Positions 7,886-64,000 of a DNA stretch of 64,000 nucleotides are shown here, piece by piece. Origin of the DNA: Sphingopyxis sp. (lineage in GTDB: Bacteria > Pseudomonadota > Alphaproteobacteria > Sphingomonadales > Sphingomonadaceae). The DNA is taken from positions 14,060 to 78,059 of the forward strand of contig JBEBJX010000001.1 in NCBI GenBank assembly GCA_040079655.1, written 5' to 3'. Both the position numbers and the translations under genes were made by a program. Within the stretch, counting starts at the first letter, position 1. Each line of letters opens with the position of its first letter. Under the pieces are notes generated by a model. That model had not been told where the DNA came from and did not search any database. It worked only from the letters and a program-made list of their open reading frames with translations.

Positions 7886-7905
7886 AGCCACAAGGATTGA
7901 AGCTA

Positions 7906-7946: not shown

Positions 7947-7954
7947 GATACTGT

Positions 7955-9541
7955 GTGCCCATGAGCAAAATACCAACTAGAACACTCACCATTGTCGGCG
8001 GTGGCACCGCCGGATGGATGACGGCTGCGGCGGTCGCGCATTTTTTGCGGCGTGGCTGGGCCATCACGCTCGTCGAATCGGATGCCATCGGCACCATCGG
8101 GGTCGGTGAGGCGACTATACCGCAAATACGCCACTTCAATGCCGCGCTCGGGATAGACGAGGCGGAGATGCTGCGCGCTTGCCAAGGCAGTTTCAAACTG
8201 GGCATCGCGTTTGAGGGGTGGCGCGCACCGGGGCATCGCTACATGCACGGCTTTGGCGGCGTTGGCCGCGACCTTGGCCTGATGCCCTTCTGTCACTATT
8301 GGGTGGCCGCAAAGCGTAGCGAGGACAACCGCGCTGGCTTGCCCGTGGGAAAGGCCCGAGAGGACAGCCTTGATGCCCATAGTGTGGCGGCACAGGCGGC
8401 CTATGCCGGGCGCTTTGCACCGCCCGACCCCGCGCGGCCCGCCCCCGCTGGTGGCCACAATTACGCTTATCATATCGATGCAACGCTTTATGCGGCGTTT
8501 CTGCGGCAACGCGCCGAAGCTGGCGGTGTAACGCGGATCGAAAGCCGCATCACCCATGTGACACGCGATGGGGCAAGCGGCGATATATCCGCGCTGGTGC
8601 TGGAAAATGGAACGCACGTCGGCGGTGATCTTTTCATCGACTGTTCGGGCATGGCTGGTCTGTTGATCGAGCGCGAATGCGCCGCCGGGTTTGAAGACTG
8701 GGGCCATTGGTTGCCATGCGACACCGCGCTAGCGGTGCCCAGCCGCGCTGGATTTCCAGTGGGAAAGGCGGGAGAGGAAGGCCAGCATGGCGGGCCGATC
8801 ATGCCCTATACCCGTTCGATTGCGCGGCCCGCAGGCTGGCAGTGGCAAATCCCGCTGCAACACCGCGTTGGCAACGGTCACGTCTATGCGAGCCGCCATA
8901 TGTCCGATGACGAAGCGGCGACGATATTGCTGGCCAACCTGCCGGGTGAGGCGCTGGCCGAACCGCGCAAAATTGGCTTTACTGCGGGGCGCAGGCGCAA
9001 AATCTGGTCGCAAAATGTCATTGCTATCGGCCTGTCGAGCGGTTTCCTTGAGCCGCTTGAATCGACGAGTATCCACCTCATTCAAACGGGGATTGAGCGA
9101 TTGTTGCAACGCTTGCCGACAGCAAGCCCCAGCGAAGTGGAGCGCGCGGCCTATAATGACGATGCGAGGGTCGAGATGGAGCGCATCCGCGATTTCATCA
9201 TCCTCCATTATTGTGCCAATGGCCGCGACGAGCCATTCTGGCGCGGGCGACGCGATGCACCAATACCGGACAGCCTGTCGGAGCGCATCGCGCTGTTCCG
9301 CGACTGTGGGCGGATCGCGCGCCATGGCAATGAGCTGTTCACGCAGCTGGCGTGGCAACAGGTGCTGATTGGACAAGGCGTGGTTCCGAATGCGGCGCAC
9401 CCGCTGACCGAGCAGATTAGTGCAGACGACCTATCGGGTTTCATCGAAACGACACGCCGCGCGGTTAGCCACAGCGCCGCCGCCATGCCCACCCATGCCG
9501 ATTTCATTGCGCGCCATTGCGCCGCAGGAGTGCCCTTATGA
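7955..9541 (+). CDS. Tryptophan halogenase-family flavoprotein (copy 1)
   Basis: VGGGTAGW FAD motif, IGVGEAT, FKLGI (catalytic Lys position), WQWQIP (WxWxIP), FLEPLEST. Confidence 0.9.
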   Translation: MPMSKIPTRTLTIVGGGTAGWMTAAAVAHFLRRGWAITLVESDAIGTIGVGEATIPQIRHFNAALGIDEAEMLRACQGSFKLGIAFEGWRAPGHRYMHGFGGVGRDLGLMPFCHYWVAAKRSEDNRAGLPVGKAREDSLDAHSVAAQAAYAGRFAPPDPARPAPAGGHNYAYHIDATLYAAFLRQRAEAGGVTRIESRITHVTRDGASGDISALVLENGTHVGGDLFIDCSGMAGLLIERECAAGFEDWGHWLPCDTALAVPSRAGFPVGKAGEEGQHGGPIMPYTRSIARPAGWQWQIPLQHRVGNGHVYASRHMSDDEAATILLANLPGEALAEPRKIGFTAGRRRKIWSQNVIAIGLSSGFLEPLESTSIHLIQTGIERLLQRLPTASPSEVERAAYNDDARVEMERIRDFIILHYCANGRDEPFWRGRRDAPIPDSLSERIALFRDCGRIARHGNELFTQLAWQQVLIGQGVVPNAAHPLTEQISADDLSGFIETTRRAVSHSAAAMPTHADFIARHCAAGVPL

Positions 9542-11298
9542 TTGCTCGTTCGACACTCATCGCATTATTGGGCGCAGCAGCGGTGCTGAGCGGCTGCGCG
9601 ATGGCGCGTGCGCAGGTGCCAAGTGCCCCCGTGCCGCTATCGTCGGTGCGTGACCGTCTGCCAGAGGACGAGATCATCTATCTCGTCATGCCTGATCGAT
9701 TCGACAATGGCGATACGACCAATGATACGGGCGGTATCGCGGGCGGGCCATTGCAGACGGGGTTCGACCCGACGCACAAGGGTTTCTATCACGGCGGTGA
9801 CCTTGCTGGATTGACCCAACGGCTAGATTATATCCAGGGGCTGGGCGTCACCGCAATCTGGTTCACGCCAATCTTCGTCAACCGCCCGGTCCAAGGGGAT
9901 CCTGGTGCGCCTGAGGGGCAACTGAGTGCGGGTTATCACGGCTATTGGGCGACTGACTTTACCACCATCGACCCGCATTTGGGGACCGAAGCCGAGTTCC
10001 GCGCCTTTGTCGACGCCGCGCATGCGCGTGGGATGAAGGTCTATATGGACATCGTTACCAACCACACCGCCGATGTCATTCGCATGGCCGAATGCCCGAA
10101 TAGCGCCTGCCCCTATCGCAGCATCGCCGATTATCCTGACCATGCCTATACCCCCGTCGTCCCAGCGGGTGAAGCGGGGGTGAAGGTGCCCGCGTGGCTC
10201 AACGACCCCCAATATTACCATAATCGCGGCAACACGACCTTTCGCGGCGAAAGCTCGACCATGGGTGATTTTGTCGGCCTCGACGATCTGGCGACCGAAA
10301 ACCCGCGTGTCGTCAGTGGATTCATTGACATTTACGCCAGCTGGATCGATCGCTTTGGTATCGATGGCTTTCGCATCGACACCGCACAGCATGTGAATCC
10401 CGAATTCTGGCAGGCATTTGTCCCCGCAATCGAGGCGCGCGCGCGCGCGGCGGGAATCCCCAATTTCCATATCTTTGGCGAAGTATTCAACGAGGACCGA
10501 GACGTCGCACGACAGGCCTATTGGACACATGCCGCCGCGCTCCCGTCGCTGCTCGACTATGCCGTGGCGCGAACGATCGACGAGGTCGCAGGTGCCGCTG
10601 GGCCGACCGATGCGTTCGAGGTCACGTTCCGTGGTGACATCCTTTACGCTGGGGGCGTCGATCGCGCGCGTCAAATGCCCATTTTTCACGGCAACTATGA
10701 CGCTGGGCGCTTCGGCCACTTCATGGACGTTGCCAACCCGCGTGCCAGCGATGCCGAACGGTTGGCCCGCGCGGAACTCGCCAATGCGATGTTGATGACC
10801 ATGCGCGGCGTGCCAACGATCTACGCTGGCGATGAGCAAGGCTTCACCGGCGATGGCAATGACCAGAATGCGCGTCAGGACATGTTCGCCAGCCAAGTTG
10901 CCAGCTACAACGATGATCGGCTGATTGGGACGGAGGCGACGACCGCGACCGCCAATTTTGTGACGACACACCCGCTCTATCAGCAGATCGCGACACTCGC
11001 CGCCATCCGCCGCAGCCATCCGGCATTGACACGCGGGCGGCAAATTGTCCGTAATGCAGGGCCGACGCCCGGCCTGCTCGCCATATCGCGGATCGACCCG
11101 GTGACGGGGCGCGAGGTGGTGGCAGTGTTCAACACGTCATCGAGCGCACAATCGGGCAATATCATCGTTGACCGCGCCACGATGCGCTTTACGGCATTGG
11201 CTGGCCATTGCCCGGCAACGGTGCGTGTGGCTGGGAGTGCTGCCATAACGCTTCCTGCTTTTGGTTATATGATTTGTGCTGCGGAGCCGAACGCGTGA
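9538..11298 (+). CDS. GH13 alpha-amylase-family lipoprotein
   Basis: ATGA overlap with the upstream stop; lipobox LSGC; YHGY, DIVTNH, GFRIDT (nucleophile), GEVF (acid/base); region IV reads GNYD. Confidence 0.88.
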   Translation: MIARSTLIALLGAAAVLSGCAMARAQVPSAPVPLSSVRDRLPEDEIIYLVMPDRFDNGDTTNDTGGIAGGPLQTGFDPTHKGFYHGGDLAGLTQRLDYIQGLGVTAIWFTPIFVNRPVQGDPGAPEGQLSAGYHGYWATDFTTIDPHLGTEAEFRAFVDAAHARGMKVYMDIVTNHTADVIRMAECPNSACPYRSIADYPDHAYTPVVPAGEAGVKVPAWLNDPQYYHNRGNTTFRGESSTMGDFVGLDDLATENPRVVSGFIDIYASWIDRFGIDGFRIDTAQHVNPEFWQAFVPAIEARARAAGIPNFHIFGEVFNEDRDVARQAYWTHAAALPSLLDYAVARTIDEVAGAAGPTDAFEVTFRGDILYAGGVDRARQMPIFHGNYDAGRFGHFMDVANPRASDAERLARAELANAMLMTMRGVPTIYAGDEQGFTGDGNDQNARQDMFASQVASYNDDRLIGTEATTATANFVTTHPLYQQIATLAAIRRSHPALTRGRQIVRNAGPTPGLLAISRIDPVTGREVVAVFNTSSSAQSGNIIVDRATMRFTALAGHCPATVRVAGSAAITLPAFGYMICAAEPNA

Positions 11299-49153: not shown

Positions 49154-49224
49154 GCAGGCCATAGAAAGTTAGGCGGACACGGCGGGGGTCGGAAACTATG
49201 ACGGATGCATGGCAAAGGGCGCGG

Positions 49225-50592
49225 ATGCGCATTAGCCTGTTTGGGGCGGCGGCGGCAATACTGCTGGCGGCGCTGGTCCTCGTCGCACCCGAAGCGCGCT
49301 CCAATGCTGCACAGGACGGCGCGCATCTTGGCGTTGCATCCTGTGCTGGATCAACCTGCCATGGCCGAATGCTGGGCGATGGGCCTGTGGTGCGACAGGA
49401 CGAGATCGCGCGATGGCAGGAGCCATCGACCCAAAGCGGTGCCCATTCGCGGGCCTATTCTGTGCTTTCCAATGCGCGTAGCCGCACCATCGCCCGCAAT
49501 CTGGGCATTGCCGACGCCGCCAGCTCCTCGACCTGCCTTGGTTGTCATTCGAGCGCCGCAGCAACCAGCGGCGGGGCATTTCGCTATCAATTGTCGGACG
49601 GCGTCAATTGCGAAAGCTGCCACGGCGCGTCATCTGGCTGGATTGCATCGCACTATGCCGGAACGTTGACTGGCGCGGCGCAGCATGATGATAATGTAAG
49701 GCGCGGGCTGCGGCGATTGGAAGACCCGGTGGTGCGCGCGGGGGTGTGCCTTGATTGCCATTTTGGCTCGGCAACGGACGGGCAATTTGTCACCCACCGC
49801 ATCATGGCGGCGGGGCACCCGCGCATCGCCTTTGAGCTCGATCTGTTTTCAACATTACAGATGCACCATGTTGAGGACGCCGACTATGCCCAGCGCAAAG
49901 GCAGTGTTGACCATGTGCGGATGTGGGCGGTGGGTCAGGCGATGGCGATCGAACGCTCTCTGTCGCTGTTTCAAAACGCCAATCGCGGCACCGATGGCGT
50001 GTTCCCCGAGTTTACTTTCTATGACTGCCATAGCTGTCATCGCCGGATATTCGACCAGGCACAGCCTAGCATAACCGCAGTCGGCAACCCAGCGCGGCCC
50101 ATTCCCCAAGGGATGCCGCCCTATAATGATGAAAATATGATCATGCTGTCGGCAGCGGCACGCGTGGCCGCACCCAGTTTGGCGACGCGTTTTGACGAAA
50201 AGGCGCGCGCTTTTCACGCGGCGATGACCCGCGACCGCGGGGCTGCGGTGGCGGCAGCACGCGAACTGATGGCAGCGGTGGGCGACGTGCGTAGCGCATT
50301 GGCGGGCACGAACTTTGGTGCCGGATCAGCACGCCAAATGGCCCAGGCGATTGCGGGAGAGGCGATCCGCGCCCGCTTCACCGATTATGAAGGGTCGGTG
50401 CAGGCGGTGATGGGGATTGATACATTATTGAATGCAATGATCAGCAACGGACAAGCGACAGTGGGATCGGCGGCGGGTATTCGTGGTGACATCAACCGCG
50501 CCTATGCGGCGGTGCGCGACCCCAATGCCTATCGCCCGCGTGATTTCCAATCCGCACTCGCCAGTGCCGTTCGCAGCATCGGTGCGCTGTGA
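49225..50592 (+). CDS. Periplasmic multiheme c-type cytochrome (cytochrome c554-like N-domain, 5 heme motifs)
   Basis: Signal peptide; CAGSTCH, CLGCH, CESCH, CLDCH, CHSCH; helical C-terminal domain; start 49198 or 49225. Confidence 0.85.
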   Translation: MRISLFGAAAAILLAALVLVAPEARSNAAQDGAHLGVASCAGSTCHGRMLGDGPVVRQDEIARWQEPSTQSGAHSRAYSVLSNARSRTIARNLGIADAASSSTCLGCHSSAAATSGGAFRYQLSDGVNCESCHGASSGWIASHYAGTLTGAAQHDDNVRRGLRRLEDPVVRAGVCLDCHFGSATDGQFVTHRIMAAGHPRIAFELDLFSTLQMHHVEDADYAQRKGSVDHVRMWAVGQAMAIERSLSLFQNANRGTDGVFPEFTFYDCHSCHRRIFDQAQPSITAVGNPARPIPQGMPPYNDENMIMLSAAARVAAPSLATRFDEKARAFHAAMTRDRGAAVAAARELMAAVGDVRSALAGTNFGAGSARQMAQAIAGEAIRARFTDYEGSVQAVMGIDTLLNAMISNGQATVGSAAGIRGDINRAYAAVRDPNAYRPRDFQSALASAVRSIGAL

Positions 50593-50682
50593 TGAAGCGA
50601 TGCCGCACAACCCAAAAGCGATTTGAAGTCAGATGGCACCGCCTGACGGCTCGCAAATCGCGGCAAGGCAAAGGAGTAGAGC

Positions 50683-52680
50683 ATGGTCTTTGATACAATC
50701 AAAGGACGTCATGCTCTAGGCTGGACAGCCTGTTTGGCAATGAGCCTGGCCGGATGCGGCAGCGGCGGCACTGGCGGCCCAGGCGGCGGATCGCCCTCGC
50801 CAACACCAACCCCAACACCGACCGGCATGGCCTTTGTGCTGCCCGCAGCCGAGGCGCTTAGCGTCTCCGATGTTGAGCGCATCATCGGCCAGGCGGTTAC
50901 CGAAGCCCAGGCGCGCGGGCAAAATGCGGTGATTGCGGTGGTTGATCGCCCCGGCAATGTGCTTGGCGTTTTCCGCATGACGGGCGCACCGCCAACCTCT
51001 GTGGTCGGCGCAGCGCCCAATGGCCAAAACCGCGATGCACAGGGCCAAACCATCCCATCCACCGCAGCAGCCATCGCCAAGGCGGTCACCGGCGCCTATC
51101 TGTCAAGCGGCGGCAATGCCTTTTCCACCCGCACCGCCAGCATGATTGTGCAACAGCATTTTCCGCCTGCGCCGGTCGCGGTGGGGCTTGAGAGCGGCCC
51201 GCTTTATGGTGTGCAATTCAGCTCGCTGCCCTGTTCTGACCTGTCGGCGCGCTATCGCGACGGCAACCTTGGGACGGGGCCGCTGATCGGGCCAAAGCGT
51301 TCGCCGCTTGGCCTGTCGGCGGATGCGGGCGGGCTGCCGCTCTATAAAAATGGCGTGCTGGTTGGCGGCATTGGCGTGATGTCCGATGGCGTCTATGGTT
51401 TTGACCCCGATGTCACCAATATCGACAATGACCCAGAGGAGTATAGCGCGCTGGCGGGAACACGCGGGTTCGAAGCACCCGTGGAAATCCGCGCCGACCG
51501 CATCCCCGTTGATGGCACGACATTGCGCTATTCGGATGCGCGCTATGACCAATTGACCACCAGCACCGCCCCCGCATTTGCAACGATTAACGGCACATTG
51601 GGGCAATTGATCGCAGTGCGCGGCTATTTTGGCGCTCCCGTCCCCGTTATCCAGGCGGGCGCGATTTACGGCACAGAAGCGTCGGGGCTGCGGCTCGCCA
51701 CGGCAGCAGAGTTTAGCCGCAGCGACGCGATGATCCTGAGCAATGGCGCGGGAACGGGGCGCTACCCGATACGCGGCGGCACCGATGCCGGCACCGTCGC
51801 CACACCGATGAGCGCCGCTGAAACGCGCGCGATATTGGAAGAGGCCTTTACCGTCATGGCGCGGGCGCGCGCGCAAATCCGCCGCCCATTGAACGCCCAG
51901 GCGCAGGTGACGATCAGTGTCGTTGACAGTTTCGGCGCGGTGTTGGGCATGGTGCGTTCGCCCGATGCGCCACTGTTTGGCATTGACGTCAGCCTGCAAA
52001 AGGCGCGCTCGGCAATGTTCCTGTCAAACAGCGTCGCCGCCGCCAATTTGCTGGCCGATCCTGACCCTGCGGTTCGTACCTATGTCGGCGCGGCGCGAAC
52101 CTTCCTCAATGACCCAGCCGCCCTCACCGGCACCGTCGCTTATTCCAATCGCGCGATCGGCCTGTTGCATCGCCCCTATTTTCCCGACGGCGAAGTCGGG
52201 CGCGCCAACGGCCCATTTTCCCGCGATATTGGCGGGTTTAACCCGCTATCGACCGGGCTGCAAAGCGCGATGACATTTCCCGACATCCTCAATCACCTGT
52301 TGTTTGTCCTCAATATCAACTCGGCTGATGTGAAACAGCGCTGCACCAACATTCCCGACAGCGCGCCCGGGCTTAATCGCTTGGCCAATGGCATGCAGAT
52401 TTTCCCCGGTGCGGTGCCCATTTATCGCGGAAATCAGCTGGTCGGCGGTATCGGCATATCGGGCGACGGCATCGACCAGGATGATATGGTGGCCTTCCTC
52501 GGCGTCGCCAATGCGTCCGCGCGGCTGGGCGGCAGCGTAACGCAAGCGCCGTTTGATCGCCGCGCTGATCGCTTGGTCGTTACGCTTCCCGATGCGCGGC
52601 AAGTGCGGCTGCGCTATGTCAATTGCCCGTTCACGCCGTTCCTCGATACCGACGCGCAAAATGTCTGTCAGGGCCTGTAA
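50683..52680 (+). CDS. Lipoprotein with tandem GlcG/HbpS (DUF336) heme-binding domains
   Basis: Lipobox LAGC plus PT linker; two copies of the pattern AVVD..G..L / KA..A / GG(L/V)P.Y..G.LVGGIG. Confidence 0.75.
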   Translation: MVFDTIKGRHALGWTACLAMSLAGCGSGGTGGPGGGSPSPTPTPTPTGMAFVLPAAEALSVSDVERIIGQAVTEAQARGQNAVIAVVDRPGNVLGVFRMTGAPPTSVVGAAPNGQNRDAQGQTIPSTAAAIAKAVTGAYLSSGGNAFSTRTASMIVQQHFPPAPVAVGLESGPLYGVQFSSLPCSDLSARYRDGNLGTGPLIGPKRSPLGLSADAGGLPLYKNGVLVGGIGVMSDGVYGFDPDVTNIDNDPEEYSALAGTRGFEAPVEIRADRIPVDGTTLRYSDARYDQLTTSTAPAFATINGTLGQLIAVRGYFGAPVPVIQAGAIYGTEASGLRLATAAEFSRSDAMILSNGAGTGRYPIRGGTDAGTVATPMSAAETRAILEEAFTVMARARAQIRRPLNAQAQVTISVVDSFGAVLGMVRSPDAPLFGIDVSLQKARSAMFLSNSVAAANLLADPDPAVRTYVGAARTFLNDPAALTGTVAYSNRAIGLLHRPYFPDGEVGRANGPFSRDIGGFNPLSTGLQSAMTFPDILNHLLFVLNINSADVKQRCTNIPDSAPGLNRLANGMQIFPGAVPIYRGNQLVGGIGISGDGIDQDDMVAFLGVANASARLGGSVTQAPFDRRADRLVVTLPDARQVRLRYVNCPFTPFLDTDAQNVCQGL

Positions 52681-52683
52681 CGG

Positions 52684-54633
52684 ATGAGCGTCACTTTCGC
52701 CTTTGCCCTGCCTTTGGTGGCTTCGGTGGTGCCCGCCACGACGACTGTCGAAACGGTGACGAACCCCGAAGAGAGCGAGAGCACGCCTGAGGCCGCGCCT
52801 GAAAACGCCGAGCAAGCCGAACCGTCGCCCCCGCCGCCGCCACCCGACTGGCAACGACGTATCGAGCCAACATTGTTGCAGGAAATCCTAGAAGGCCGCC
52901 GCCGCCCGGGCTATCAACCCGGCCTGCCAGAGGCGGTGACGCAGGAAAATGTCGGGGCAATCCGCGCCCTGCCGCCATCGGCATTTCCACAGGAGACATT
53001 GCCGATACCCGATCGCTGGCGGCTGATCACAGCGCTTTGCCCGGTGCAGAGCATCTTCACCGCGCTACAAAATGTCTGCCATTCCGCGCGCGACCCCTAT
53101 CATCAAAATCTGCTCAAGGGTGACAGACCCATCCCGCCCGAGGATTTCCCCAGCTTTTTGGGAATAGAGGGGCATGACTGGTTTTTAACCTTGTCGGCAA
53201 TTTCAGACACGGTGGTCGAGCCGCGCAGTTTCCCCATCCCGGTCGGCGTCCAAACGACAGAGCGGCCCGACAGCAACAATGTGTTCGGTCGCCCGACCAG
53301 CCTGGTCTTGTCACAAACATTCATTATGGGCGCGGCGCTGACCAAGGGGATGACCGCGTTCAAGCCACCCGATGTTGAATATCGCGTCGCGATTGCGTTC
53401 AACATGAATTATGTCGATGTGCCAGAGCGCCGCGTGCTGTTTGTCGAACCATCGCGTCCATCCCATCGGTTTGATTATTTTCTGGGCGTCCAGGAAGCCT
53501 TTATCGACAAGCATCTGGGCAATGATTCAGACCGCTATGATTTTCATTCGATCCGCGTCGGCATTCAGCCCTTTCAGACCGATTTTCGCGGCTTTCTGTT
53601 CAATGATAATCAGCTCGGTATCCGCCTGTTTGGCAACCGCGACAATAATCGCTTTCAATATAATCTGGCGGCATTTTGGCGGCTGGAAAAGGACACCAAT
53701 TCGGGCCTGAACGATGTCACCCAAACCCCGCGCAATGATTTTGTGCTCGCGGCCAATCTGTATCGTCAGGATTTGCCTATCCCCGGCCTGACCAGCCAAG
53801 TGACGCTTGTCTATAACCGCAACCGCGAAGGCGGCGACATCCATATCGACGACAATGGCTTTCCCATTCGCCCCGCGCTGTTCGGCACATTGCGCGGGCG
53901 CGATTATGATGTGTTTTACGCTGGTTACAACGCCGATGGTCATGTCGGCCGCATCAACCTGACAACCTCACTCTACGCGGCATTTGGCAAGGACCACAAC
54001 AACCCCATCACCGATCGGCCGGCGCGGATTGCCGGCTATTTCGCCGCCGCCGAAGCGAGTTATGACCATAATTGGATGCGCTTTCGCCTCTCGGCGCTCT
54101 ATGCCAGCGGCGACGGCAACCCCTATGACGATGTTGAGAGCGGGTTCGATGCCATTTCTGAAAACCCCCAGTTTGCGGGGGCCGATACCAGCTACTGGAT
54201 CCGCCAGGCTATCCCCTTTGCCGGCGGCGCGCGCGCGGTAACGGTCAATGGGCGTGGCGGGGTGTTAAACTCGCTGCGCTCATCCAAGGACGAAGGGCAA
54301 TCGAACTTCACCAACCCGGGAACGATATTGCTGGGGGTTGGCGGCGATTTCGACATCAGACCCGACACGCGCGTAACCGCCAACATCAACCATTTATGGT
54401 TCGAAAATACGCGGGTGATAGAGGTGCTGCGCAACCAAGGCGGCATTTCGCGCAACATTGGCTGGGACGTCTCGGTGTCGAGCATCTATCGCCCCAACAC
54501 CAACCAGAATATCGTGCTCAGACTGTCTGCCGCCGCGCTTATCCCCGGGCGCGGGTTCGACCAACTCTTTGCCAATAGCCCGCGTAGGGGGGCCTATTAT
54601 TCCATCCTCGCCAACGCAATATTGAGTTTTTGA
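52684..54633 (+). CDS. Predicted outer-membrane beta-barrel protein of unknown function
   Basis: Signal-like N-terminus, Pro/Glu-rich linker, many amphipathic aromatic-ended strands, C-terminal YYSILANAILSF ending in Phe. Confidence 0.6.
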   Translation: MSVTFAFALPLVASVVPATTTVETVTNPEESESTPEAAPENAEQAEPSPPPPPPDWQRRIEPTLLQEILEGRRRPGYQPGLPEAVTQENVGAIRALPPSAFPQETLPIPDRWRLITALCPVQSIFTALQNVCHSARDPYHQNLLKGDRPIPPEDFPSFLGIEGHDWFLTLSAISDTVVEPRSFPIPVGVQTTERPDSNNVFGRPTSLVLSQTFIMGAALTKGMTAFKPPDVEYRVAIAFNMNYVDVPERRVLFVEPSRPSHRFDYFLGVQEAFIDKHLGNDSDRYDFHSIRVGIQPFQTDFRGFLFNDNQLGIRLFGNRDNNRFQYNLAAFWRLEKDTNSGLNDVTQTPRNDFVLAANLYRQDLPIPGLTSQVTLVYNRNREGGDIHIDDNGFPIRPALFGTLRGRDYDVFYAGYNADGHVGRINLTTSLYAAFGKDHNNPITDRPARIAGYFAAAEASYDHNWMRFRLSALYASGDGNPYDDVESGFDAISENPQFAGADTSYWIRQAIPFAGGARAVTVNGRGGVLNSLRSSKDEGQSNFTNPGTILLGVGGDFDIRPDTRVTANINHLWFENTRVIEVLRNQGGISRNIGWDVSVSSIYRPNTNQNIVLRLSAAALIPGRGFDQLFANSPRRGAYYSILANAILSF

Positions 54634-57600
54634 TGGTGATGCAACGCCCCGCCTTTCTCCGTTTCGCTACGTTCATGCTGGCTCTGCTCACCATGCTCAG
54701 CGCGCTCGCCTTTCTCACGCCATCGGCCATCGCCAATGAGGGCGAGGTGCCCGTTGAGCGGCATTATGTCACCGCCCCAAATGCCCCCGCAAACCAGATA
54801 GGCGCAACATTCGAGGAACAGCGTAGCGCAGTGATGGCCAAATCCGAAGGGTGTTTCAGCTGCCATGTCCGCACCGACGAGCCATCGATGCACGCCAGCC
54901 CAGCGGTGCAGCTGGGCTGTGTCGATTGCCACGGCGGCGACGCAAGCGTTCGCGGTGACCCGGCGCTTGGCTATGCCCACCCCGACAATATGGCCGCACT
55001 AACCCGTGCCCATGTGCTGCCGCGTTACCCGCGCAGCTGGAACTGGCCTTCATCGGCCAACCCGCAGCGCAGCTACGCCCTGCTTAACCGCGAAGCACCT
55101 GAGTTCCTCCGCTTCGTCAACCCCGCTGATTATCGCGTTGCCCGCGAAGCATGCGGCGCGTGCCACCTCGCTATCATCGAAAATGCCGAGCGCTCGATCA
55201 TGTCAACCGGCGCGATGCTGTGGGGCGGGGCGGCCTATAACAATGGCATCGTCCCGTTCAAATCCTATTTGATGGGCGAAAGCTATACCCGCGAGGGCGA
55301 GCCAGCCTGCATCACCAGCCCATCGACCATATTGCCGCGCGAACAATGGGCCCGCGCCTGTGCCGACATCACCATGCCGGCGAGCGAAATATTGACGCCC
55401 GAAGAGCAAGCGCGCGGTGCACTGTCGCGCATGTACCCGCTGCCCAGCTGGACCGTGATCCCCCCGGGCGATGTGTTCCGCGTATTTGAACGCGGCGGAC
55501 GCAGCATCAACCCGGTGTTCCCAGAGATTGGCCTGCCCAATTCAACCGGGCAGATCCAGCGGCTTGACGAGCCTGGCCGCCCCGATCTGCGCCAGTCCAA
55601 TCGCGGGCCCGGCACTGGGCTTCGTGTTGCCATTCCGGTGCTCAACATCCACAAAACGCGGCTCAACGACCCGTTCATGTGGTTTATGGGCACTAATGAC
55701 CAACAAGGTGATTATCGTTCATCGGGATGTTCGGGTTGCCATGTTGTTTATGCCAATGACCGCGAGCCGCGCCACAGCAGCGTCTATGCCCAATATGGCC
55801 GCGACGGCCAGACAGCGACAGTTGACCCGACCATTTCCGGCCTGATGCAGCGCGCGCCTGTTCACGGGGAGAGTGGGCATGGCGAAGCGGGGCATGGTGA
55901 GAGCAGTAGCGGAGATGACGCACATGCCGAGGACGCACATGCCGAGAGCGGCCATGGCGGCCTGATTCCGGCTGGGTCACCGACACGCCGCGAGAGTGGC
56001 CACCCGATCCGCCACGCCTTCACCCGCGCCATCCCGACCGCGCAGTGCATGAACTGTCACATGCACCAGCCCAATGTATTCGTGAACACTTACCTTGGCT
56101 ATACGATGTGGGATTATGAAGCCGATGCGCCGCACATGTGGCCTGGCCCTGAAAATGAAGCGCCGCGCCCAGCCGGCATGAGCGACGAAGATTATAACCG
56201 CATCTATCGCAGCCAGCATTACCCGACCGCTACCGAGGTTCGCGCGATCAATGACCGCAATCCAGAGGGCGCGGCAACGCACGGCCTATGGGGCGATGTC
56301 GAGTTTCTGCGCGATGTGTACAGCCTCAACCCTGATCTCTCGGACACGCAATTTGCCGACTATCACGGCCATGGCTGGAATTTTCGCGCGGTGCTGCGCC
56401 GCGACCGCGAGGGCAATCTGCTTGATGCCGAGGGGCAAATCGTGCCGCCCGATGACCCCGAGCGCTGGCGCCGCAACGGCGAGGGCGAGTTTGCGCCGAT
56501 CGGCGTCAACCCTGGGCGCACCGTCCATTTGATGGACATCCACGCCGAAAAGGGAATGCAATGCGCCGATTGCCACTTCAGCCAAGACAGCCATGGCAAC
56601 GGGTTTATCTATGGCGAAGTTGCCAACGCGATCGAGATTGGTTGCAAGGATTGCCACGGCACTGCTGATGCCTACCCAACCCTGCTCACCTCCGGCCCTG
56701 CGGCACCGCCCGAAGGGACCAACCTCGCGCTGCTCCGCAATCCCGATGGCCAGCGGCGCTTTGAATGGGTCGATAACCCCGACGGCAGCCGCAAGCTTTT
56801 GCAGCGGTCGATCACCGACCCCGCTGTAACCTGGGAAGTCAGCCTAGTCCGCGACACGGTGACGCTCGGCAACCCGCGGTTCAACGCGCGCGCCGCGCGT
56901 GCCAAGCTTATGGGCCGTGTCAGCGAAGACGGGCAAACAAGCTGGGGCACCGGCGTCGCCTCCGATAATCGCGCCCATGGCGACGACCGCATGGCCTGTT
57001 TCACCTGCCATTTGTCATGGACCACCAGCTGCGGCGGCTGCCACTTGCCGATAGAAGCCAATTGGCTGACTAATGAGCATCATTTTGAAGGCGAAACGTC
57101 CCGTAATTTTGCGACCTATAACCCACAGGTCGCGCGCGACGAGATGTTCCAGCTGGGCATCCACCAAACCACCAAGGGCAATATCATCGCACCGGTACGC
57201 TCTTCATCGGCGCTGGTATTGTCTTCGACCAATATCAACCGCGAGCGTATCTATGTTCAGCAACCGCCGATCAGCGCGATCGGCTATTCGTCACAGGCCT
57301 TTGCGCCGCATTTCCCGCACACTGTGCGCACCACCGAAACCAAGACATGTAGCGACTGTCATTTGTCCGAAGACGAAGACAATAATGCCATCATGTCGCA
57401 GCTGCTGTTGCTCGGCACCAACTATGTCAATTTTGTCGGGCTCAACAATTTTGCGGGGCTGGAGGGCGGGTTCCAGGCGACGCGCGTCACCGAATGGGAT
57501 GAGCCACAGGCAGTCATCGGTAGTTATCTCCATCGCTATGCCTACCCCGATTTCTATCGCCTGCATGTCGACCAAAATGGCCGCGAGCTGCGCAATTGGG

Positions 57601-58832
57601 TGCGCGGTGCAATCCTTAACGATCATTTGTCGGGCGAGGGCGGCACCGAAGAGTTCCAAAATGTCGTGCAGGGCACCCGCGATCCGGTTTCCTGCCTGCA
57701 AATGCGCGGCGAATATATGTTCGTCGCCGAAGGACGCGGCGGCTTTGCGGTTTATGATATTGCGTCGGTCGCCAACAAGGGCTTTTCAGACCGCATCATT
57801 ACCGCGCCATTTTCTCCGCTCGGTCACGATCAACGCGTCGAAAGTCGCAACGCAACCTGCATGGCGCTCCCCACCAATCAGGCAATAGCGCCAACGCGCA
57901 GCACCGAAACATTGCGCACCATCAACCAGGAACAGCCGTTCCACCCTATCTATAATTATGCGGTGGTGACCGACGCCGAAGAGGGGTTGATCCTTGTCGA
58001 CGTCAATACATTTGCCGATGGCGAGCTGCGCAACAACAACTTGCGCCGCGCGCTCACCTGGAACCCCGATGGCGTGTTGAACGGCGCGCAGCACATCACG
58101 CTGGCGGGGTCGGTTGCCTATATTACCACTGCGCATGGGCTGGCGGTGGTTGATCTGGCCGATCCCATGAGCCCGCGCCTTACCGCCGACATTGCGATGG
58201 ATGGTGCCAAGGCGAGCACGATCCAGTTCCGCTATCTGTGGGTCAGCGACGCGAGCGGTATCAGGTTGTTCGACACCACCGATATGCGCGTTCCGGTGGC
58301 GGTGCCAAGCGGCGACATTGCGCTGCCGAGCGCGCAGCGCATGTATATCGCGCGCACCTACCTCTATGTTGCGGCGGGGGATCAGGGGCTGGTTATCATG
58401 AATGTGACGCGGCCACGCGCACCCGCTGAGCTGATGCGTTACACGGCGGGCGGCACGCTCAATGATGCGCGCGACGTGGTGGTCGCATCGACCAATGCCA
58501 GCCTGTTTGCCTATGTCGCCGATGGCCGCAACGGGGTGAAGATATTGCAACTGACCAGCCCCGCCAGTCAGCCCAATTTCTATGGCTTCAGCCCGCGCCC
58601 GGTGCCCGAACTCATTGCCTGGGCGCGCACGCCGACCCCGGCGGTTGCGATGTCCAAGGGGCTGGACCGTGACCGCGCGGTTGATGAAACCGGCGGGCAG
58701 ATTGCTGTGTTCGGGCGGCTTGGCTCGCGGCCATTTACACGGCCGGAGATGGAACGGCTGTTCCGCACGCCGGGTGGACTCTTATACAAGGTCAGCGACC
58801 GAACCGATATGGCGCGGTGGGCGGGGAACTAG
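54633..58832 (+). CDS. Large secreted decaheme c-type cytochrome with C-terminal LVIVD-repeat beta-propeller
   Basis: Signal peptide; ten CxxCH motifs (CFSCH, CVDCH, CGACH, CSGCH, CMNCH, CADCH, CKDCH, CFTCH, CGGCH, CSDCH); repeats such as GLILVDV, GLAVVDL, GIRLFD, GLVIMNV; TGATG coupling to the barrel gene. Confidence 0.85.
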   Translation: MVMQRPAFLRFATFMLALLTMLSALAFLTPSAIANEGEVPVERHYVTAPNAPANQIGATFEEQRSAVMAKSEGCFSCHVRTDEPSMHASPAVQLGCVDCHGGDASVRGDPALGYAHPDNMAALTRAHVLPRYPRSWNWPSSANPQRSYALLNREAPEFLRFVNPADYRVAREACGACHLAIIENAERSIMSTGAMLWGGAAYNNGIVPFKSYLMGESYTREGEPACITSPSTILPREQWARACADITMPASEILTPEEQARGALSRMYPLPSWTVIPPGDVFRVFERGGRSINPVFPEIGLPNSTGQIQRLDEPGRPDLRQSNRGPGTGLRVAIPVLNIHKTRLNDPFMWFMGTNDQQGDYRSSGCSGCHVVYANDREPRHSSVYAQYGRDGQTATVDPTISGLMQRAPVHGESGHGEAGHGESSSGDDAHAEDAHAESGHGGLIPAGSPTRRESGHPIRHAFTRAIPTAQCMNCHMHQPNVFVNTYLGYTMWDYEADAPHMWPGPENEAPRPAGMSDEDYNRIYRSQHYPTATEVRAINDRNPEGAATHGLWGDVEFLRDVYSLNPDLSDTQFADYHGHGWNFRAVLRRDREGNLLDAEGQIVPPDDPERWRRNGEGEFAPIGVNPGRTVHLMDIHAEKGMQCADCHFSQDSHGNGFIYGEVANAIEIGCKDCHGTADAYPTLLTSGPAAPPEGTNLALLRNPDGQRRFEWVDNPDGSRKLLQRSITDPAVTWEVSLVRDTVTLGNPRFNARAARAKLMGRVSEDGQTSWGTGVASDNRAHGDDRMACFTCHLSWTTSCGGCHLPIEANWLTNEHHFEGETSRNFATYNPQVARDEMFQLGIHQTTKGNIIAPVRSSSALVLSSTNINRERIYVQQPPISAIGYSSQAFAPHFPHTVRTTETKTCSDCHLSEDEDNNAIMSQLLLLGTNYVNFVGLNNFAGLEGGFQATRVTEWDEPQAVIGSYLHRYAYPDFYRLHVDQNGRELRNWVRGAILNDHLSGEGGTEEFQNVVQGTRDPVSCLQMRGEYMFVAEGRGGFAVYDIASVANKGFSDRIITAPFSPLGHDQRVESRNATCMALPTNQAIAPTRSTETLRTINQEQPFHPIYNYAVVTDAEEGLILVDVNTFADGELRNNNLRRALTWNPDGVLNGAQHITLAGSVAYITTAHGLAVVDLADPMSPRLTADIAMDGAKASTIQFRYLWVSDASGIRLFDTTDMRVPVAVPSGDIALPSAQRMYIARTYLYVAAGDQGLVIMNVTRPRAPAELMRYTAGGTLNDARDVVVASTNASLFAYVADGRNGVKILQLTSPASQPNFYGFSPRPVPELIAWARTPTPAVAMSKGLDRDRAVDETGGQIAVFGRLGSRPFTRPEMERLFRTPGGLLYKVSDRTDMARWAGN

Positions 58833-59448: not shown

Positions 59449-60309
59449 TCAAGCGCTGGAAACCCCCGGCCGCTCGCCAATCAGATGCTCGACCAGGTCG
59501 ATCATAGCGTGGTTATATTGCGCTAAAACAAGTCCTTGTGATGCGCTGTCAAAATGGCTGACCATTTGCGCGCCATTCCAGTGGTGGAGCGCATAGCCTG
59601 GGTCGTCGGCAATGATCATCGCGCGGTCGTCGGTCGCCCTCGTGTCAATCGGGCGCAGGTCGAGCGCGACCTGTGGCGAGGTCGATGAGCAAACGATTGC
59701 AGTCAATCCATGCCATTGCACGCTCATTGACCGATGCAAATGGCCGCAAATTAGCCCGCAAAGTTGCGGCGCATCGGCGATCGCCTCTGTGAAGCGCTGC
59801 ACCCATGGCTCGCTGGGGTCGGTGGTCATCCAGTCAATCCCGCTATCGAACGGCGGATGGTGCATGACAATATAGGTTGGAAGGTGAGGATGCTCGGCCA
59901 GCCGCGATTTCAGCCACGCGGCGCGCACTTCGCAAAAAGCGCCGCCGTGCCGCCCCTCTTCCAATGTGTCGATAACGATCAGGCGGAAATCTGCGAACAG
60001 CCGATCATATTGGATGAAGCCGCTGCGATCAGCGAAATCGGGGAAAACCTCGGTAAAGGCGGTGCGGACATCGTGATTGCCGACGCACGGAAACACGGGC
60101 CACGGATAAGCCGCAAAGGCATTGCGCAACCGCACATAGCTCGCCGTATCCCCCTGATCGGTCAAATCGCCCGTCGCCAACATCAGATCAGGCGCATTTG
60201 GGCCGACTGCCAGCCTTTCCAGCACCATGTCCAGCCGCTGCTGATTATATTCATCGGGATTCCCAGAATCAAAACCGATGTGAATATCGGTGATCTGGGC
60301 GATCAACAT
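59449..60309 (-). CDS. Metallophosphoesterase, CpdA/Icc-like cyclic-nucleotide phosphodiesterase
   Basis: QITDIH, TGDLTD, GNHD, MHHPP, GHLH calcineurin-like metal motifs; GAGAGG RBS. Confidence 0.85.
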   Translation of the reverse strand: MLIAQITDIHIGFDSGNPDEYNQQRLDMVLERLAVGPNAPDLMLATGDLTDQGDTASYVRLRNAFAAYPWPVFPCVGNHDVRTAFTEVFPDFADRSGFIQYDRLFADFRLIVIDTLEEGRHGGAFCEVRAAWLKSRLAEHPHLPTYIVMHHPPFDSGIDWMTTDPSEPWVQRFTEAIADAPQLCGLICGHLHRSMSVQWHGLTAIVCSSTSPQVALDLRPIDTRATDDRAMIIADDPGYALHHWNGAQMVSHFDSASQGLVLAQYNHAMIDLVEHLIGERPGVSSA

Positions 60310-60348: not shown

Positions 60349-62205
60349 CTACCGTTGCCTATCAGAGTCTGTGATGGAAATCACTCGGCCCGATTGCTCT
60401 CGGCCTGCGGGCCCTCGGCCTCCGCGCTGTCGACGGTCTGACGATTGCGGCGGTTGCCACGGGGCATCGGCCCGCTCACCTGCATGATATTCATGGCACG
60501 AAGCGCAAGGGCTTTCGACATCCGCGCCGGAATTTTCACCGCCATGACAATCGCGGCACACCTTGATTTCAGGAATCAGCAATTGATTGGCGGAGGATGA
60601 TCGCGCGGCCAGATGGCAGGTGCTGCATGGCTCATCATTATGCGGGCGATGATCGAACCAGCCATGCTCCAGATAGCGCGCGGTCTGGGTCACGGGCAGA
60701 ACGCGCCAATTGCTGTTTCCGGCGGCGGGCGCAAATATGGTGTGGCAATCATAACAAGCCCCACCGCGTGAAAATACGGCGCGCACCGCATCATTGGCGC
60801 GTGTCGGACGCACCGTGGTTTCGCGGAAATAGATGTTATAGATTTGCCCCTGGGCAAATTCACCCGGCCTGCGCCGCGCCATCCCGCCAAGGCTGATCGG
60901 CCGTGTTGGCGGGGTAGACCGATAATAGGCATAAAGGTCAGCCACCACCTGGGCCGGCTCACCATGGCGCAATGTCCGCGTCACCCCGCCCACGCTTTCG
61001 AACGACAGGCTGTGGCATCCCTGGCAATCGCGCTCCATATCAACGGGTTCAAAACGCACGCCATCCGCCGTTGGTCTATGGCAATTGGCACAATCCAGCC
61101 CCGACTGTTGGCCAGCGTTGAGGCGCAAATGTCGCGCCATGCGCGCCACCCCGCCCGCTTGTTGCAGATGCATATTATGCGGGAACTTCAGGCCGTTGAT
61201 GTCGGTTGTCTGTGGTGTGAGGGTGGTACGGACAAAACGTGGGGCCGCGCCCGGTGCCACTTGAACCCGTGGGCGAAACTGCGGGTGCGAAGTGCCAAAA
61301 TCACCCGCATCGCCGATCCGCGTATCGGTTAACCGGCTCGACATGCCGTTGTGACAATCGGCGCAAAATGCCTGAGCGGTGGCGGGCATCGGGCCTGCAC
61401 CCTCATGCTCATTATGACAATCAACGCATCGGCCCTGTGTCCGGTTGAACGCCGCACCAATGCGATTTAATACGCCGCGGAACATCCCCGGCTCGCCGCG
61501 CGCAGCCAATTGCCGATTGATCGGCGCATGGTCATGCGCATCATCATGGCAGCTTTTACATGCCTGATCGGTCACCGCGACAAAGGCATCTGTGTGGCAC
61601 GACTGGCAATCGCGAGCCAGCGCGGCGTGCACGCTGCTCAACGGCCCCGATGACCAGCTTTGGTCAGCATGAAAGGTTGCTGGGCGCTCCTCAATTCCGC
61701 GCCACTGCATATAGGCGAATATCGGCGCAATCAGGAAAGCGCCTATGACGAGCAGCGCAAAGGCCCAGGCCGAAAGCCGCCGCCCGGGCAATTTTCCTCG
61801 CAATGAAAATGCGCGCCCCTCATCACGATCAAGCGCCGAATGGCTGAGCTCATCTGTCCGTGTTACGGTCAATGTCACGCGGGAATCAGCGGTTTCGCTA
61901 TCCAGACCAACGGTGATACGATGCCCGCCAAAGCGCAGTTCAGCGCCATCACCAGCATCAATCGAGGCGCGGGTGACCGTGCGACCATCCCATTCAAATC
62001 CAAGGCCGGTTGTCGCCTGAACCTCGATATGGCGGCCGTCATTGGAGGTGATCGTGGCGTGATGAGGGATCACCGCCAGATCGGCGAGGTGGATGTCGCT
62101 CGACGCATCACGGCCGACCGCAATTTCACGCTGCACGAGCGGCGTCGAACGGATGATTTCGCGGCCAGCGCTGGTCACCGAAACCCGGCGGAGAAGGAAG
62201 CTCAT
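60349..62205 (-). CDS. FHA-like domain + TM helix + periplasmic decaheme cytochrome c
   Basis: N-terminal VGRDASSDIHL...HHA FHA-like pattern, one TM helix, ten CxxCH (CQSCH, CKSCH, CVDCH, CADCH, CANCH, CQGCH, CYDCH, CSTCH, CRDCH, CASCH); ATG 62205. Confidence 0.85.
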   Translation of the reverse strand: MSFLLRRVSVTSAGREIIRSTPLVQREIAVGRDASSDIHLADLAVIPHHATITSNDGRHIEVQATTGLGFEWDGRTVTRASIDAGDGAELRFGGHRITVGLDSETADSRVTLTVTRTDELSHSALDRDEGRAFSLRGKLPGRRLSAWAFALLVIGAFLIAPIFAYMQWRGIEERPATFHADQSWSSGPLSSVHAALARDCQSCHTDAFVAVTDQACKSCHDDAHDHAPINRQLAARGEPGMFRGVLNRIGAAFNRTQGRCVDCHNEHEGAGPMPATAQAFCADCHNGMSSRLTDTRIGDAGDFGTSHPQFRPRVQVAPGAAPRFVRTTLTPQTTDINGLKFPHNMHLQQAGGVARMARHLRLNAGQQSGLDCANCHRPTADGVRFEPVDMERDCQGCHSLSFESVGGVTRTLRHGEPAQVVADLYAYYRSTPPTRPISLGGMARRRPGEFAQGQIYNIYFRETTVRPTRANDAVRAVFSRGGACYDCHTIFAPAAGNSNWRVLPVTQTARYLEHGWFDHRPHNDEPCSTCHLAARSSSANQLLIPEIKVCRDCHGGENSGADVESPCASCHEYHAGERADAPWQPPQSSDRRQRGGRGPAGREQSGRVISITDSDRQR

Positions 62206-62216
62206 TTTACCCGCCC

Positions 62217-63101
62217 CTACCAGTAGAAAAAAACGCTGATGATGTGTGCCGTCAGCGCCGCGATCAACGCAAATGTCATCGGCACATGGGCGTAAAGCCA
62301 TATTTCGAGCAGCGACTTAAGCTTGAGATGTCGGCGCAACCGCCCCAATGCCGCAAGCTTGCGGGTCAATAAAATATCCACTTTTTCCATTGGGTCGTGG
62401 CCACTATCGTGCTGTGGCCCAGTCTGTGCGCGCACCAGCTCTAGCGCCCTCGCCGTGTCACACCGCCGCATCCGGCCCGTGAGGCGCGACCATAGCGAGC
62501 CGGCAAAAGGGTCCTGATCGAGCGACAGGCGGACAATCTGGGCATCGGCAGGGTCGAGCGGTTGCGCGGCCGCATGAAGTTGTCGATCAAGGCCGCGAAT
62601 ATCCTCGAGCATCTGTGCCTGGGTCCGCTCATCGCGATTGTTCGAGAGCAAGGCTGGCAAGCTGCTGTAAACGGTGATGCCCCAAATCCCCGACGCAATG
62701 ACCAGCATCATCAGGCTCCAGGCCAGCGTATGGACATTCCAGCCCAGTTGAAACCCCGTGTGCAATGTGCCGATGACGACAAGCGACAGCCCCAGATAGA
62801 CATGGGCCGATGTCCATGACTTTAACGACCATGCGCCGCGCGTCATCGCCCGTTTGCGCACACCGAGCAGCGTCAGCCACAGGATCAACAGCGCGCCGAT
62901 CGTTCCAAGCGTATAGCCATACCAACTGCCACCATTATGCCGCGGGGCAACATCGACCAGCCAGTAACTGACGAAGCAGATGAGGATGATGGCGACCGCA
63001 ATTTTGAGCCACAAGAAACCAGCATGCGAGAGAAAGCCCGTGTGCAGGCTCGATCGCTGGCGTTCGCCCTGTGCGGCGCGGCGTTTGAAACGACTAGCCA
63101 T
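62217..63101 (-). CDS. Inner-membrane protein, predicted di-heme cytochrome b (ferric-reductase-like)
   Basis: About 5 TM helices; His pairs H100/H114 and H272/H286, each 14 residues apart within a TM helix; TAATG coupling. Confidence 0.6.
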   Translation of the reverse strand: MASRFKRRAAQGERQRSSLHTGFLSHAGFLWLKIAVAIILICFVSYWLVDVAPRHNGGSWYGYTLGTIGALLILWLTLLGVRKRAMTRGAWSLKSWTSAHVYLGLSLVVIGTLHTGFQLGWNVHTLAWSLMMLVIASGIWGITVYSSLPALLSNNRDERTQAQMLEDIRGLDRQLHAAAQPLDPADAQIVRLSLDQDPFAGSLWSRLTGRMRRCDTARALELVRAQTGPQHDSGHDPMEKVDILLTRKLAALGRLRRHLKLKSLLEIWLYAHVPMTFALIAALTAHIISVFFYW

Positions 63102-64000
63102 TAATCGTCATCCTGCGTCAGGCGCGCGACGGACAAAAATGCCTCTGGCGAAACGCGGATGGCCGCCCCCGTCGGGCAGGCACGCACGCACGCTGGCCCG
63201 CCCGATATTCCAGAGCACATGTCGCATTTGATCGCCTTTTTCGGCGTTTCAACCCCCTTTGGCCCATGTGCTTTTGACCATTTTTTACTCGGCTCGCCAG
63301 GTCCAGGCCCAAGCCCGAGGAACAGCCAGGACAATAGGCCTGGTTTCTTTGGCGGCGCCGCGTCCATGCGAATGACGCCATAGGGGCAGTATCGCTGGCA
63401 ATTGCCACAGCCGATGCAGGTGTCGTCTATGAACACTTCGCCATCTGGGCCGCGGTGGATGGCATTGGGCGGACAGTCAGACATGCAATGCGGATGCTCA
63501 CAATGTCGACAAGAGGTTGGCACATGAATATGCGCGAAAGTTGCGCCGGCCTCACGATCGAGGCGCGATAATCCTTCATGGCTGTCGGCACAGGCTTTTT
63601 CGCAATTATCGCACGCCACGCACAATGTCTCGTCGATGAGCAACACATCGGTCGCTTCGCCAATCCCTTTGTCCACCAGGAATTTGGCGGTTTCAGAATA
63701 GAGCTCAACCGCACTGGAAAAGCTCGCTTTGCGCCCTTCGATAAAATTATTCAGGTCTTGGCGGGCGGCCATATCACCGCGCAAACGCGCCGCCAAATCG
63801 GGCTTGGTTGCCAATATTTTACGGAATGCGGCGCCCGACACCTTGACCACTTCGGATTTGACAGCAGCCTTGACCGTAGCCGTGCGCGCACCGCCGGCAA
63901 TAACCGCCATTTCCCCGACATAGGATCCCGCTGGCAGATAAGATAAAAACACCGGCTTGCCGCCAATCTGTTTTTCAACAACCATTGACCCCTGGCGAAC
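63101..64000 (-). CDS. Cyclic-nucleotide-binding domain fused to a DmsB/NrfC-type 4x[4Fe-4S] domain; 5' part lies beyond the window
   Basis: G.YVGEMA...GARTATVKA cNMP motif; CVACDNCEKAC, CRHCEHPHCMSDCP, CIGCGNCQRYCP, CDMC...PACVRACP; frame open to the window end. Confidence 0.85.
   Translation of the reverse strand, partial: VRQGSMVVEKQIGGKPVFLSYLPAGSYVGEMAVIAGGARTATVKAAVKSEVVKVSGAAFRKILATKPDLAARLRGDMAARQDLNNFIEGRKASFSSAVELYSETAKFLVDKGIGEATDVLLIDETLCVACDNCEKACADSHEGLSRLDREAGATFAHIHVPTSCRHCEHPHCMSDCPPNAIHRGPDGEVFIDDTCIGCGNCQRYCPYGVIRMDAAPPKKPGLLSWLFLGLGPGPGEPSKKWSKAHGPKGVETPKKAIKCDMCSGISGGPACVRACPTGAAIRVSPEAFLSVARLTQDDD

Follow-up and report, generated by a model that had tools for sequence, protein, structure and literature searches.

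A putative di-heme cytochrome b between an Fe-S flavoprotein and a decaheme cytochrome in a conserved gene module of Sphingopyxis sp.

A stretch of 64,000 nucleotides from Sphingopyxis sp. (GenBank assembly GCA_040079655.1, contig JBEBJX010000001.1, positions 14,060 to 78,059 of the forward strand; here called the window) carries on its minus strand a gene for a five-helix inner-membrane protein (IMP), the target of this analysis. The gene is flanked by one for a cytoplasmic Fe-S flavoprotein and one for a periplasmic decaheme cytochrome c. Relatives of its product are labelled 'hypothetical protein' at NCBI and, in several UniRef entries, 'Ferric reductase like transmembrane component...'. 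Porin-cytochrome clusters with multiheme proteins, of the types PCC3, PCC4 and ptd, occur widely, and for the passage of electrons across their inner membrane a five-helix protein with two HX13H pairs is the only carrier proposed. The gene and the parts of its product, with transmembrane (TM) helices numbered from the N-terminus, are as follows.

62217..63101, minus strand: target gene, encoding a 294-residue five-TM inner-membrane protein, a putative di-heme cytochrome b (IMP/PtdF-like), from its open reading frame, homologs and AlphaFold2 model.
62760..62816, minus strand: TM3 motif W96-x3-H100-x13-H114 (H100 codon 62802-62804, H114 codon 62760-62762), both His invariant in 79 relatives.
62679..62693, minus strand: TM4 motif S137-G138-I-W-G141 (SGXXG), G138 invariant and G141 at least 90% conserved.
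62313..62645, minus strand: helical insert on the cytoplasmic side that links TM4 to TM5 (153-263, about 110 residues), with 19 Lys and Arg and with helices in the AlphaFold2 model.
62244..62300, minus strand: TM5 motif W268-x3-H272-x13-H286 (H272 codon 62286-62288, H286 codon 62244-62246), both His invariant in 79 relatives.

Translation of the gene places His at residues 20, 26, 55, 100, 114, 124, 176, 231, 235, 258, 272 and 286. On the Kyte-Doolittle scale the protein has five hydrophobic segments (∼27-52, 61-83, 97-119, 123-152 and 264-294), with H100 and H114 in the third (TM3) and H272 and H286 in the last (TM5). An earlier reading of the DNA from its letters alone (the sequence-only reading) had claimed that H100-x13-H114 and H272-x13-H286 each lie within a TM helix, and both translation and hydrophobicity scan confirm it. 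When 12 His are placed at random in the protein, an HX13H pair falls on each of two different TM helices in 0.17% of trials. The members of a pair are 14 residues apart, which corresponds to ∼21 Å along a helix and to roughly the same helix face and is the classical spacing of the bis-heme TM3 and TM5 of NOX2 (PMC3591440), and on TM3 a conserved Gly sits on the face that bears the His.

Structure prediction, named as a check in the sequence-only reading, supports the five-helix layout: the AlphaFold2 model built on an alignment of 137 sequences is all-helical, with a pLDDT of 82.3 and a pTM of 0.73. It supersedes a model made with 30 closely related sequences, which was too poor to use (pLDDT 64.7). 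Blocks within TM1, TM3, TM4 and TM5 reach a pLDDT of at least 90, and TM2 lies at 88-90. The ∼120-residue soluble loop that had been described between the two His-bearing helices stands as a polar stretch but not as a bare loop, since the interval is made up of TM4 (∼123-152) and the cytoplasmic insert. In the model the insert forms a small helical domain, with helices at residues 161-179, 184-194, 203-208, 215-227 and from 237 onward, the last being a single long helix (237-293) that extends from the insert into TM5.

The motif His are among the most conserved residues of a large family. More than 5900 relatives of the target are found in a collection of 5.8 billion proteins, the closest coming from Sphingopyxis, Sphingobium and other Sphingomonadaceae, and a profile run against 1.84 billion cluster representatives detects 2364 families at E ≤ 1e-3, 295 of them at E ≤ 1e-30. 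In an alignment of 79 representatives with 28-51% identity, no more than nine columns are invariant (G66, R84, S98, H100, H114, G138, P149, H272 and H286), and four of the nine are the motif His, whose conservation the sequence-only reading had left to an alignment to decide. In a set of 111 full-length cluster representatives, H100 and H114 are conserved in 100%, H272 in 95% and H286 in 96%, the exceptions being mostly gaps.

Three neighbouring genes on the same strand form a conserved module with the target.

63101..64000, minus strand: 3' part of the upstream gene, whose complete product of 816 residues continues past the window (L003:5161-7611) and has FAD/NAD(P), two cyclic-nucleotide-binding (cNMP) domains and four [4Fe-4S]-type Cys clusters, from domain scans.
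60349..62205, minus strand: downstream gene, encoding a 618-residue periplasmic decaheme protein in which an N-terminal FHA domain is combined with a single TM helix (142-160) and ten CXXCH motifs; its likely start is the ATG at 62205.
59449..60309, minus strand: gene of a 286-residue protein, an open reading frame and the fourth gene of the module, kept in 73 of 80 related loci.

The stop codon of the upstream gene overlaps the start of the target by one base (TAATG), and the TAG of the target is separated by 11 nt from the downstream ATG (MSFLLRR...); the tight coupling to both genes claimed in the sequence-only reading is therefore real. The longest open reading frame of the decaheme gene starts earlier, at 62301, and with its extra part (window 62206-62301) would overlap the target by 85 nt. 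This long form is probably not real, because the conserved protein begins at the ATG past the stop of the target. The 816-residue upstream protein has an FAD GxGxxG motif at its extreme N-terminus, matches to Pyr_redox_3/Pyr_redox_2, the two cNMP-binding domains, and a C-terminal domain in which 16 Cys make up the four [4Fe-4S]-type motifs. A scan of the full protein found neither a TM helix nor a signal peptide. With two cNMP-binding domains in the Fe-S flavoprotein, a cyclic-nucleotide switch seems to be part of the module.

The order of the genes is strongly kept. Among 80 related loci, which come from named genomes, nearly all of them Sphingomonadales, the Fe-S flavoprotein gene lies upstream of the target homolog in every case and the FHA-decaheme gene downstream in 77, the contig ending shortly past the target gene in the other three; the gene of the 286-residue protein comes after the decaheme gene in 73. 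The module occurs in 48 of 150 genomes sampled from the host family, about a third, and, in a sample of 401 from the phylum, in 32, a count that includes the genome of the window itself.

Gene context was also compared at 20 loci from diverse genomes of the phylum. A multiheme c gene (6-24 CXXCH) directly follows the target homolog in all 20, and an Fe-S gene directly precedes the homolog, or is fused to it, in 14. Three gene contexts coincide with the three clades of a maximum-likelihood tree; the comparison loci were typed as PCC3 or PCC4 by their gene content, not by the reference sequences of PMC5566968.

Target clade, support 97/98: FAD-cNMP-FeS protein, IMP, FHA-type decaheme.
ptd/PCC4-type clade, sister to the target clade, support 99/96: tetraheme, cNMP+4Fe-4S protein, IMP, decaheme.
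PCC3-type clade, support 93/98: IMP, then 21-24-heme and up to 46-heme proteins.

Nearly all of the compared homologs in the three clades have WX3HX13H twice and [S/T]GXXG once, and the two motif Trp are 171-196 residues apart, mostly 173. The most divergent sequences, L133 and L134, keep both HX13H pairs and have no first Trp, and L133 is also without the Gly motif. A profile of the target clade detects the ptd/PCC4-type IMPs at E values of 7e-25 to 3.5e-12 and the IMPs that adjoin 21-46-heme genes (PCC3-type) at 1e-17 to 1e-21. Because this one profile detects both (E 1e-12 to 1e-25), the IMPs of PCC3 and PCC4 are, on profile evidence, one superfamily; He et al. 2017 had described them as sharing no significant overall homology (PMC5566968).

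In some genomes, the Fe-S partner and the membrane protein are a single polypeptide. The FAD-cNMP-FeS protein and the target homolog form one stop-free frame in three genomes (1120-1146 residues) and in one metagenomic protein (1110 residues).

L117:5577-8933 and L119:5550-8957, and also P0242: single open frames in which Pyr_redox, two cNMP and 4Fe-4S domains are joined to the five-TM protein.

A similar single annotation in Oceanospirillum beijerinckii was suspected by He et al. to be two genes (PMC5566968). Two seemingly longer fusions, P0185 and P0249, were disregarded as frameshifted read-throughs with low-complexity tails. The in-frame fusions argue for direct contact between the Fe-S protein and the target, and place the N-terminus of the target in the cytoplasm.

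The distribution of charge points the same way. The N-terminus of the target has 6 Lys and Arg, the TM2-TM3 loop 5 and the TM4-TM5 insert 19, and the remaining two loops 1 and 0. From the positive-inside rule and from the fusions to a cytoplasmic Fe-S protein, the predicted topology is N-in and C-out, which would bring H100 and H272 close to the cytoplasmic side of the membrane and H114 and H286 close to the periplasmic side. The basic TM2-TM3 loop (R82-K83-R84, of which R84 is invariant) and the helical insert make up the probable docking surface for the Fe-S protein, an analogy drawn from the cytosolic loops of NOX. On the other side, contact with the decaheme is probably made by two conserved periplasmic loops, G57-Y63 and G116-H124.

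The conservation, topology, synteny and gene fusions make it likely that the target is a five-helix cytochrome b with two bis-His b hemes, serving as the membrane-crossing middle subunit of a three-protein module that leads from NAD(P)H to a decaheme. NAD(P)H would reduce the FAD of the 816-residue cytoplasmic protein, and electrons would then pass through its four [4Fe-4S] clusters to an inner heme b, held on the cytoplasmic side by H100 of TM3 and H272 of TM5, and on to an outer heme b, held on the periplasmic side by H114 and H286. The membrane-anchored periplasmic decaheme c would receive them there, and would probably hand them to the products of putative porin and decaheme-propeller genes on the opposite strand. 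The motif and its conservation, the topology signals, the gene order and the fusions are observed directly; heme binding, the pairing of the His, outward electron flow and independence of quinone are inferred. The carrier between Fe-S protein and decaheme across the inner membrane, as the sequence-only reading had it, thus gains computational support, its hemes being putative.

A different role has been suggested in the case of Ferrigenium straubiae, whose genes for a [4Fe-4S] protein, a five-TM protein and a nonaheme protein, 'NHC', with one TM helix and a cytosolic FHA domain share the three-gene layout of the module here; homology with the target is presumed from that layout alone. No redox motif was found in the five-TM protein, and a scaffold was proposed (bioRxiv 10.64898/2026.01.22.701106, section 6.3.2); the preprint reports no InterPro match for it and suggests that it is a binding platform. 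A non-redox protein of this sort would merely hold the decaheme and the Fe-S protein together, with the His in a structural or metal-ion-binding role, and it would sit well with the lack of any heme-family model above threshold for the target. Such a role is very hard to credit for a protein in which four His within the membrane are invariant and form two x13 pairs, on alternate helices, each pair following a conserved Trp, and in which a conserved Gly lies on the His face of TM3. Without a cofactor in the membrane, moreover, the electrons of the cytoplasmic Fe-S clusters would have no path to the periplasmic hemes.

Several points weigh against the reading of the target as a di-heme cytochrome b fed by the Fe-S protein. 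The searched literature contains no purification, spectra or mutants of any member of the family, and no experimental heme. Outward flow is favoured on grounds of redox potential and membrane potential, a bioenergetic inference that is the sole basis for the direction. PCC3-type relatives (L123, L124 and L129) have no Fe-S gene directly upstream, so that supply by an Fe-S protein may not be general and a site for quinone is possible. The only Pfam match of the target is to PF01292, over residues 34-144, and is below threshold (22.6 bits for a cut-off of 30.1, E 9.9e-5); PF01794 gives no match to the target at E ≤ 0.1. Alignment of the family profile by hhalign to a 189-residue PF01292 protein of the same genome has a probability of 2.8% over 18 columns, alignment to six long-form four-His ferric reductase domains (FRDs) from other Alphaproteobacteria 2.9-3.2% (E ∼0.015), and alignment to 14 short-form alphaproteobacterial FRDs and to a weak FRD-like protein from the genome of the window 3% or lower. 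A Foldseek search of the PDB with the AlphaFold2 model had a best E of 0.2, and its first 50 entries included no FRD, though the long cytoplasmic insert may mask a match of the core in this search.

A whole-genome search with PF01292 found three true members elsewhere and not the target, NCBIfam has no family that matches it, and sequence and profile searches of the PDB matched no chain, with coiled-coil noise on the cytoplasmic insert only. Among the 79 relatives, Pfam matches are to PF01292 in 47, weakly, to DUF4405 in 12 and to PF01794 (Ferric_reduct) in four, the strongest of these four at E 0.0014. The best local alignment to the long-form FRDs is a gapless one of 55 columns, in which TM2, the basic loop and both TM3 His are in register; it is suggestive and no more. 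The sequence, profile and fold tests having failed, the target cannot be filed under PF01794 or PF01292. An identity as a NarI/DsrM-type cytochrome b was considered and dropped: in that family the His pairs are on TM2 and TM5, with different spacings, and so differ in both helices and spacing from those of the target.

The resemblance to the NOX and ferric reductase family is accordingly an analogy of motif and topology alone. FRDs have four His, two on TM3 and two on TM5 (PMC3591440), as the target does; the six-helix fold of the solved NOX and STEAP structures is not found in the target, which has five helices only. In NOX2, His-101 and His-209 hold the inner heme and His-115 and His-222 the outer heme, again with two His each on TM3 and TM5 (PMC3591440). 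The parallel with these pairs drawn in the sequence-only reading is right as to the bis-heme arrangement on TM3 and TM5, except that the second pair of NOX2, 209/222, is x12 rather than x13. From TM3 to TM5 the His are 172 residues apart in the target and 108 in NOX2, the longer spacing being due to the helical insert. The FRD superfamily (PF01794: NOX2/gp91phox, FRE, bacterial NOX, MsrQ/YedZ, STEAP) also shares with the target a cytoplasmic NAD(P)H/FAD donor and cytoplasmic TM2-3 and TM4-5 loops. In contrast with these enzymes, the target module would put an Fe-S relay between flavin and hemes, and its acceptor would be a multiheme cytochrome, not O2 or Fe(III). By this analogy the target would work like the bis-heme core of NOX/FRE. 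The b561/Ni_hydr_CYTB family (PF01292; FdnI, HyaC, CybB) resembles the target, with its putative hemes, in comprising small helical di-heme b membrane proteins with Fe-S partners; its members have four TM helices, and the His of FdnI are distributed differently from those of the target.

The same protein group has been described before. He et al. 2017 reported that the IMPs of putative PCC3 and PCC4 clusters have five TM helices, SGXXG on TM4 and WX3HX13H on both TM3 and TM5, and, comparing them with the ferric reductase domain and cytochrome b, proposed that they have two b hemes and transfer electrons across the membrane, possibly via quinone (PMC5566968). The target has all of these motifs, two WX3HX13H and one SGXXG, along with the size (∼300 residues) and the five predicted helices, with which those of the AlphaFold2 model concur. 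PCC3 and PCC4 IMPs are likewise of ∼300 residues and adjoin a multiheme c gene, and those of PCC4 subgroup II have a pfam13247 Fe-S gene upstream (PMC5566968); in the window, the upstream protein matches PF13247 (Fer4_11) and the decaheme gene adjoins the target. The di-heme wire idea for this group was thus already published in 2017, and the inference of the sequence-only reading repeats it.

A quinone link is one alternative. In it, the two hemes of a quinone-coupled cytochrome b would connect the periplasmic multiheme c to the quinone pool, and the Fe-S flavoprotein would be regulatory or secondary. It has been proposed for the same IMP group, likened to the cytochrome b of bc1 or to the b subunit of [NiFe]-hydrogenase (PMC5566968), and it would account both for the PCC3-type loci without a directly upstream Fe-S gene and for the weak similarity of 47 of 79 relatives to PF01292, a family of quinone-reactive b cytochromes. 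It is nevertheless unlikely for the target, whose clade, like the ptd clade, always has an Fe-S gene directly upstream, sometimes fused in frame. Even at PCC3-type loci (L127, and the locus of a paralog on contig C28, described below) a gene with Fer4 and Pyr_redox_3 lies nearby, and no quinone-site motif was identified, though a proper test for one could not be made here.

The reading of the target as a wire from the Fe-S protein to the decaheme also draws on the ptdABCDEFG operon, in which PtdC is an FAD/NAD(P) protein, PtdE has cNMP and 4Fe-4S domains, PtdF is a 'ferric reductase-like' membrane protein and PtdG a decaheme (bioRxiv 10.1101/2023.11.21.568154). The order PtdE-PtdF-PtdG is that of the target module, and the layout of cNMP+Fer4 protein, IMP and decaheme is confirmed here in other genomes. 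The target module differs from ptd in that the PtdC-like and PtdE-like parts are merged in one 816-residue protein with no intervening tetraheme gene, that its decaheme has an FHA domain, and that pentaheme and putative porin genes are on the opposite strand. From the PCC3 and PCC4 IMPs at large, the target is set apart by its own clade (97/98), by an Fe-S partner whose polypeptide also contains the FAD/NAD(P) domain, by a decaheme partner with a cytoplasmic FHA domain and by its aerobic Sphingomonadaceae hosts. By its position in the tree it is a new member, in a distinct clade, of a known but uncharacterised kind of protein. What is new is that one profile joins the target, ptd/PCC4-type and PCC3-type clades, with a shared motif throughout, and that in-frame fusions physically tie the target protein to its NAD(P)H/FAD/Fe-S donor.

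The direction of flow has its own alternative. PCC3 and PCC4 were discovered in Fe(II) oxidisers and modelled as uptake conduits (PMC5566968), and Ferrigenium expresses its module while it oxidises Fe(II) (bioRxiv 10.64898/2026.01.22.701106); a di-heme wire could run inward, with Fe(II) or Mn(II) outside the cell as donor, the multiheme chain as conduit and the cytoplasmic Fe-S flavoprotein as the site where NAD(P)+ is reduced. The host family of the target, about a third of whose sampled genomes have the module, consists of aerobic heterotrophs, which makes this decidedly improbable. The cost is also against it: by established bioenergetics, an electron that leaves the positive side of the membrane for the negative one, and that is also driven uphill to about -320 mV, pays twice.

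The opposite and more far-reaching proposal, outward and quinone-independent, can be offered tentatively. The module might be a cyclic-nucleotide-gated 'split NOX', in which electrons pass from NAD(P)H to FAD, four [4Fe-4S] clusters, two hemes b, ten hemes c and an outer-membrane decaheme-propeller. If so, common aerobic heterotrophs would export cytoplasmic reducing power to the cell surface, the module would be a candidate for the long-sought enzyme of extracellular metal reduction or superoxide production by such organisms, and the target would be the first of the bis-heme transmembrane wires to be fed by Fe-S clusters. Cultured aerobic carriers of the module include Sphingobium chlorophenolicum L-1, Sphingopyxis witflariensis DSM 14551 and Blastomonas natatoria DSM 3183; as these Sphingomonadaceae are easily grown, a direct biochemical test is practical.

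A convergent operon faces the module in the window (49198-58832, plus strand). It encodes a 464-residue protein with four CXXCH, a 665-residue HbpS-like lipoprotein, a 649-residue protein and a 1400-residue protein. The last has ten CXXCH and an LVIVD repeat, and its gene adjoins the module in at least 26 of the 80 related loci; the open reading frame of the 649-residue protein (52684-54633) has no Pfam match.

A second, PCC3-like module is present in the same genome, on contig C28 (L004, G000:C28:14000-25576; 3526-10585). Its IMP, a paralog of the target with 298 residues, both WX3HX13H motifs and SGLVG, falls in the PCC3-type clade and is followed by a 646-residue protein with 24 CXXCH and a 498-residue protein with 17. 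Divergently upstream are genes for a CcmH-like TPR protein and for a 438-residue protein with Fer4 and Pyr_redox_3. The target has a fifth His of note, H124, which stands with N122 at the periplasmic start of TM4 (N122-V-H124, window 62730-62738). It is 98% conserved within the clade of the target only, is absent from the C28 paralog, and might make a contact peculiar to this clade, with the FHA-type decaheme or with a heme propionate.

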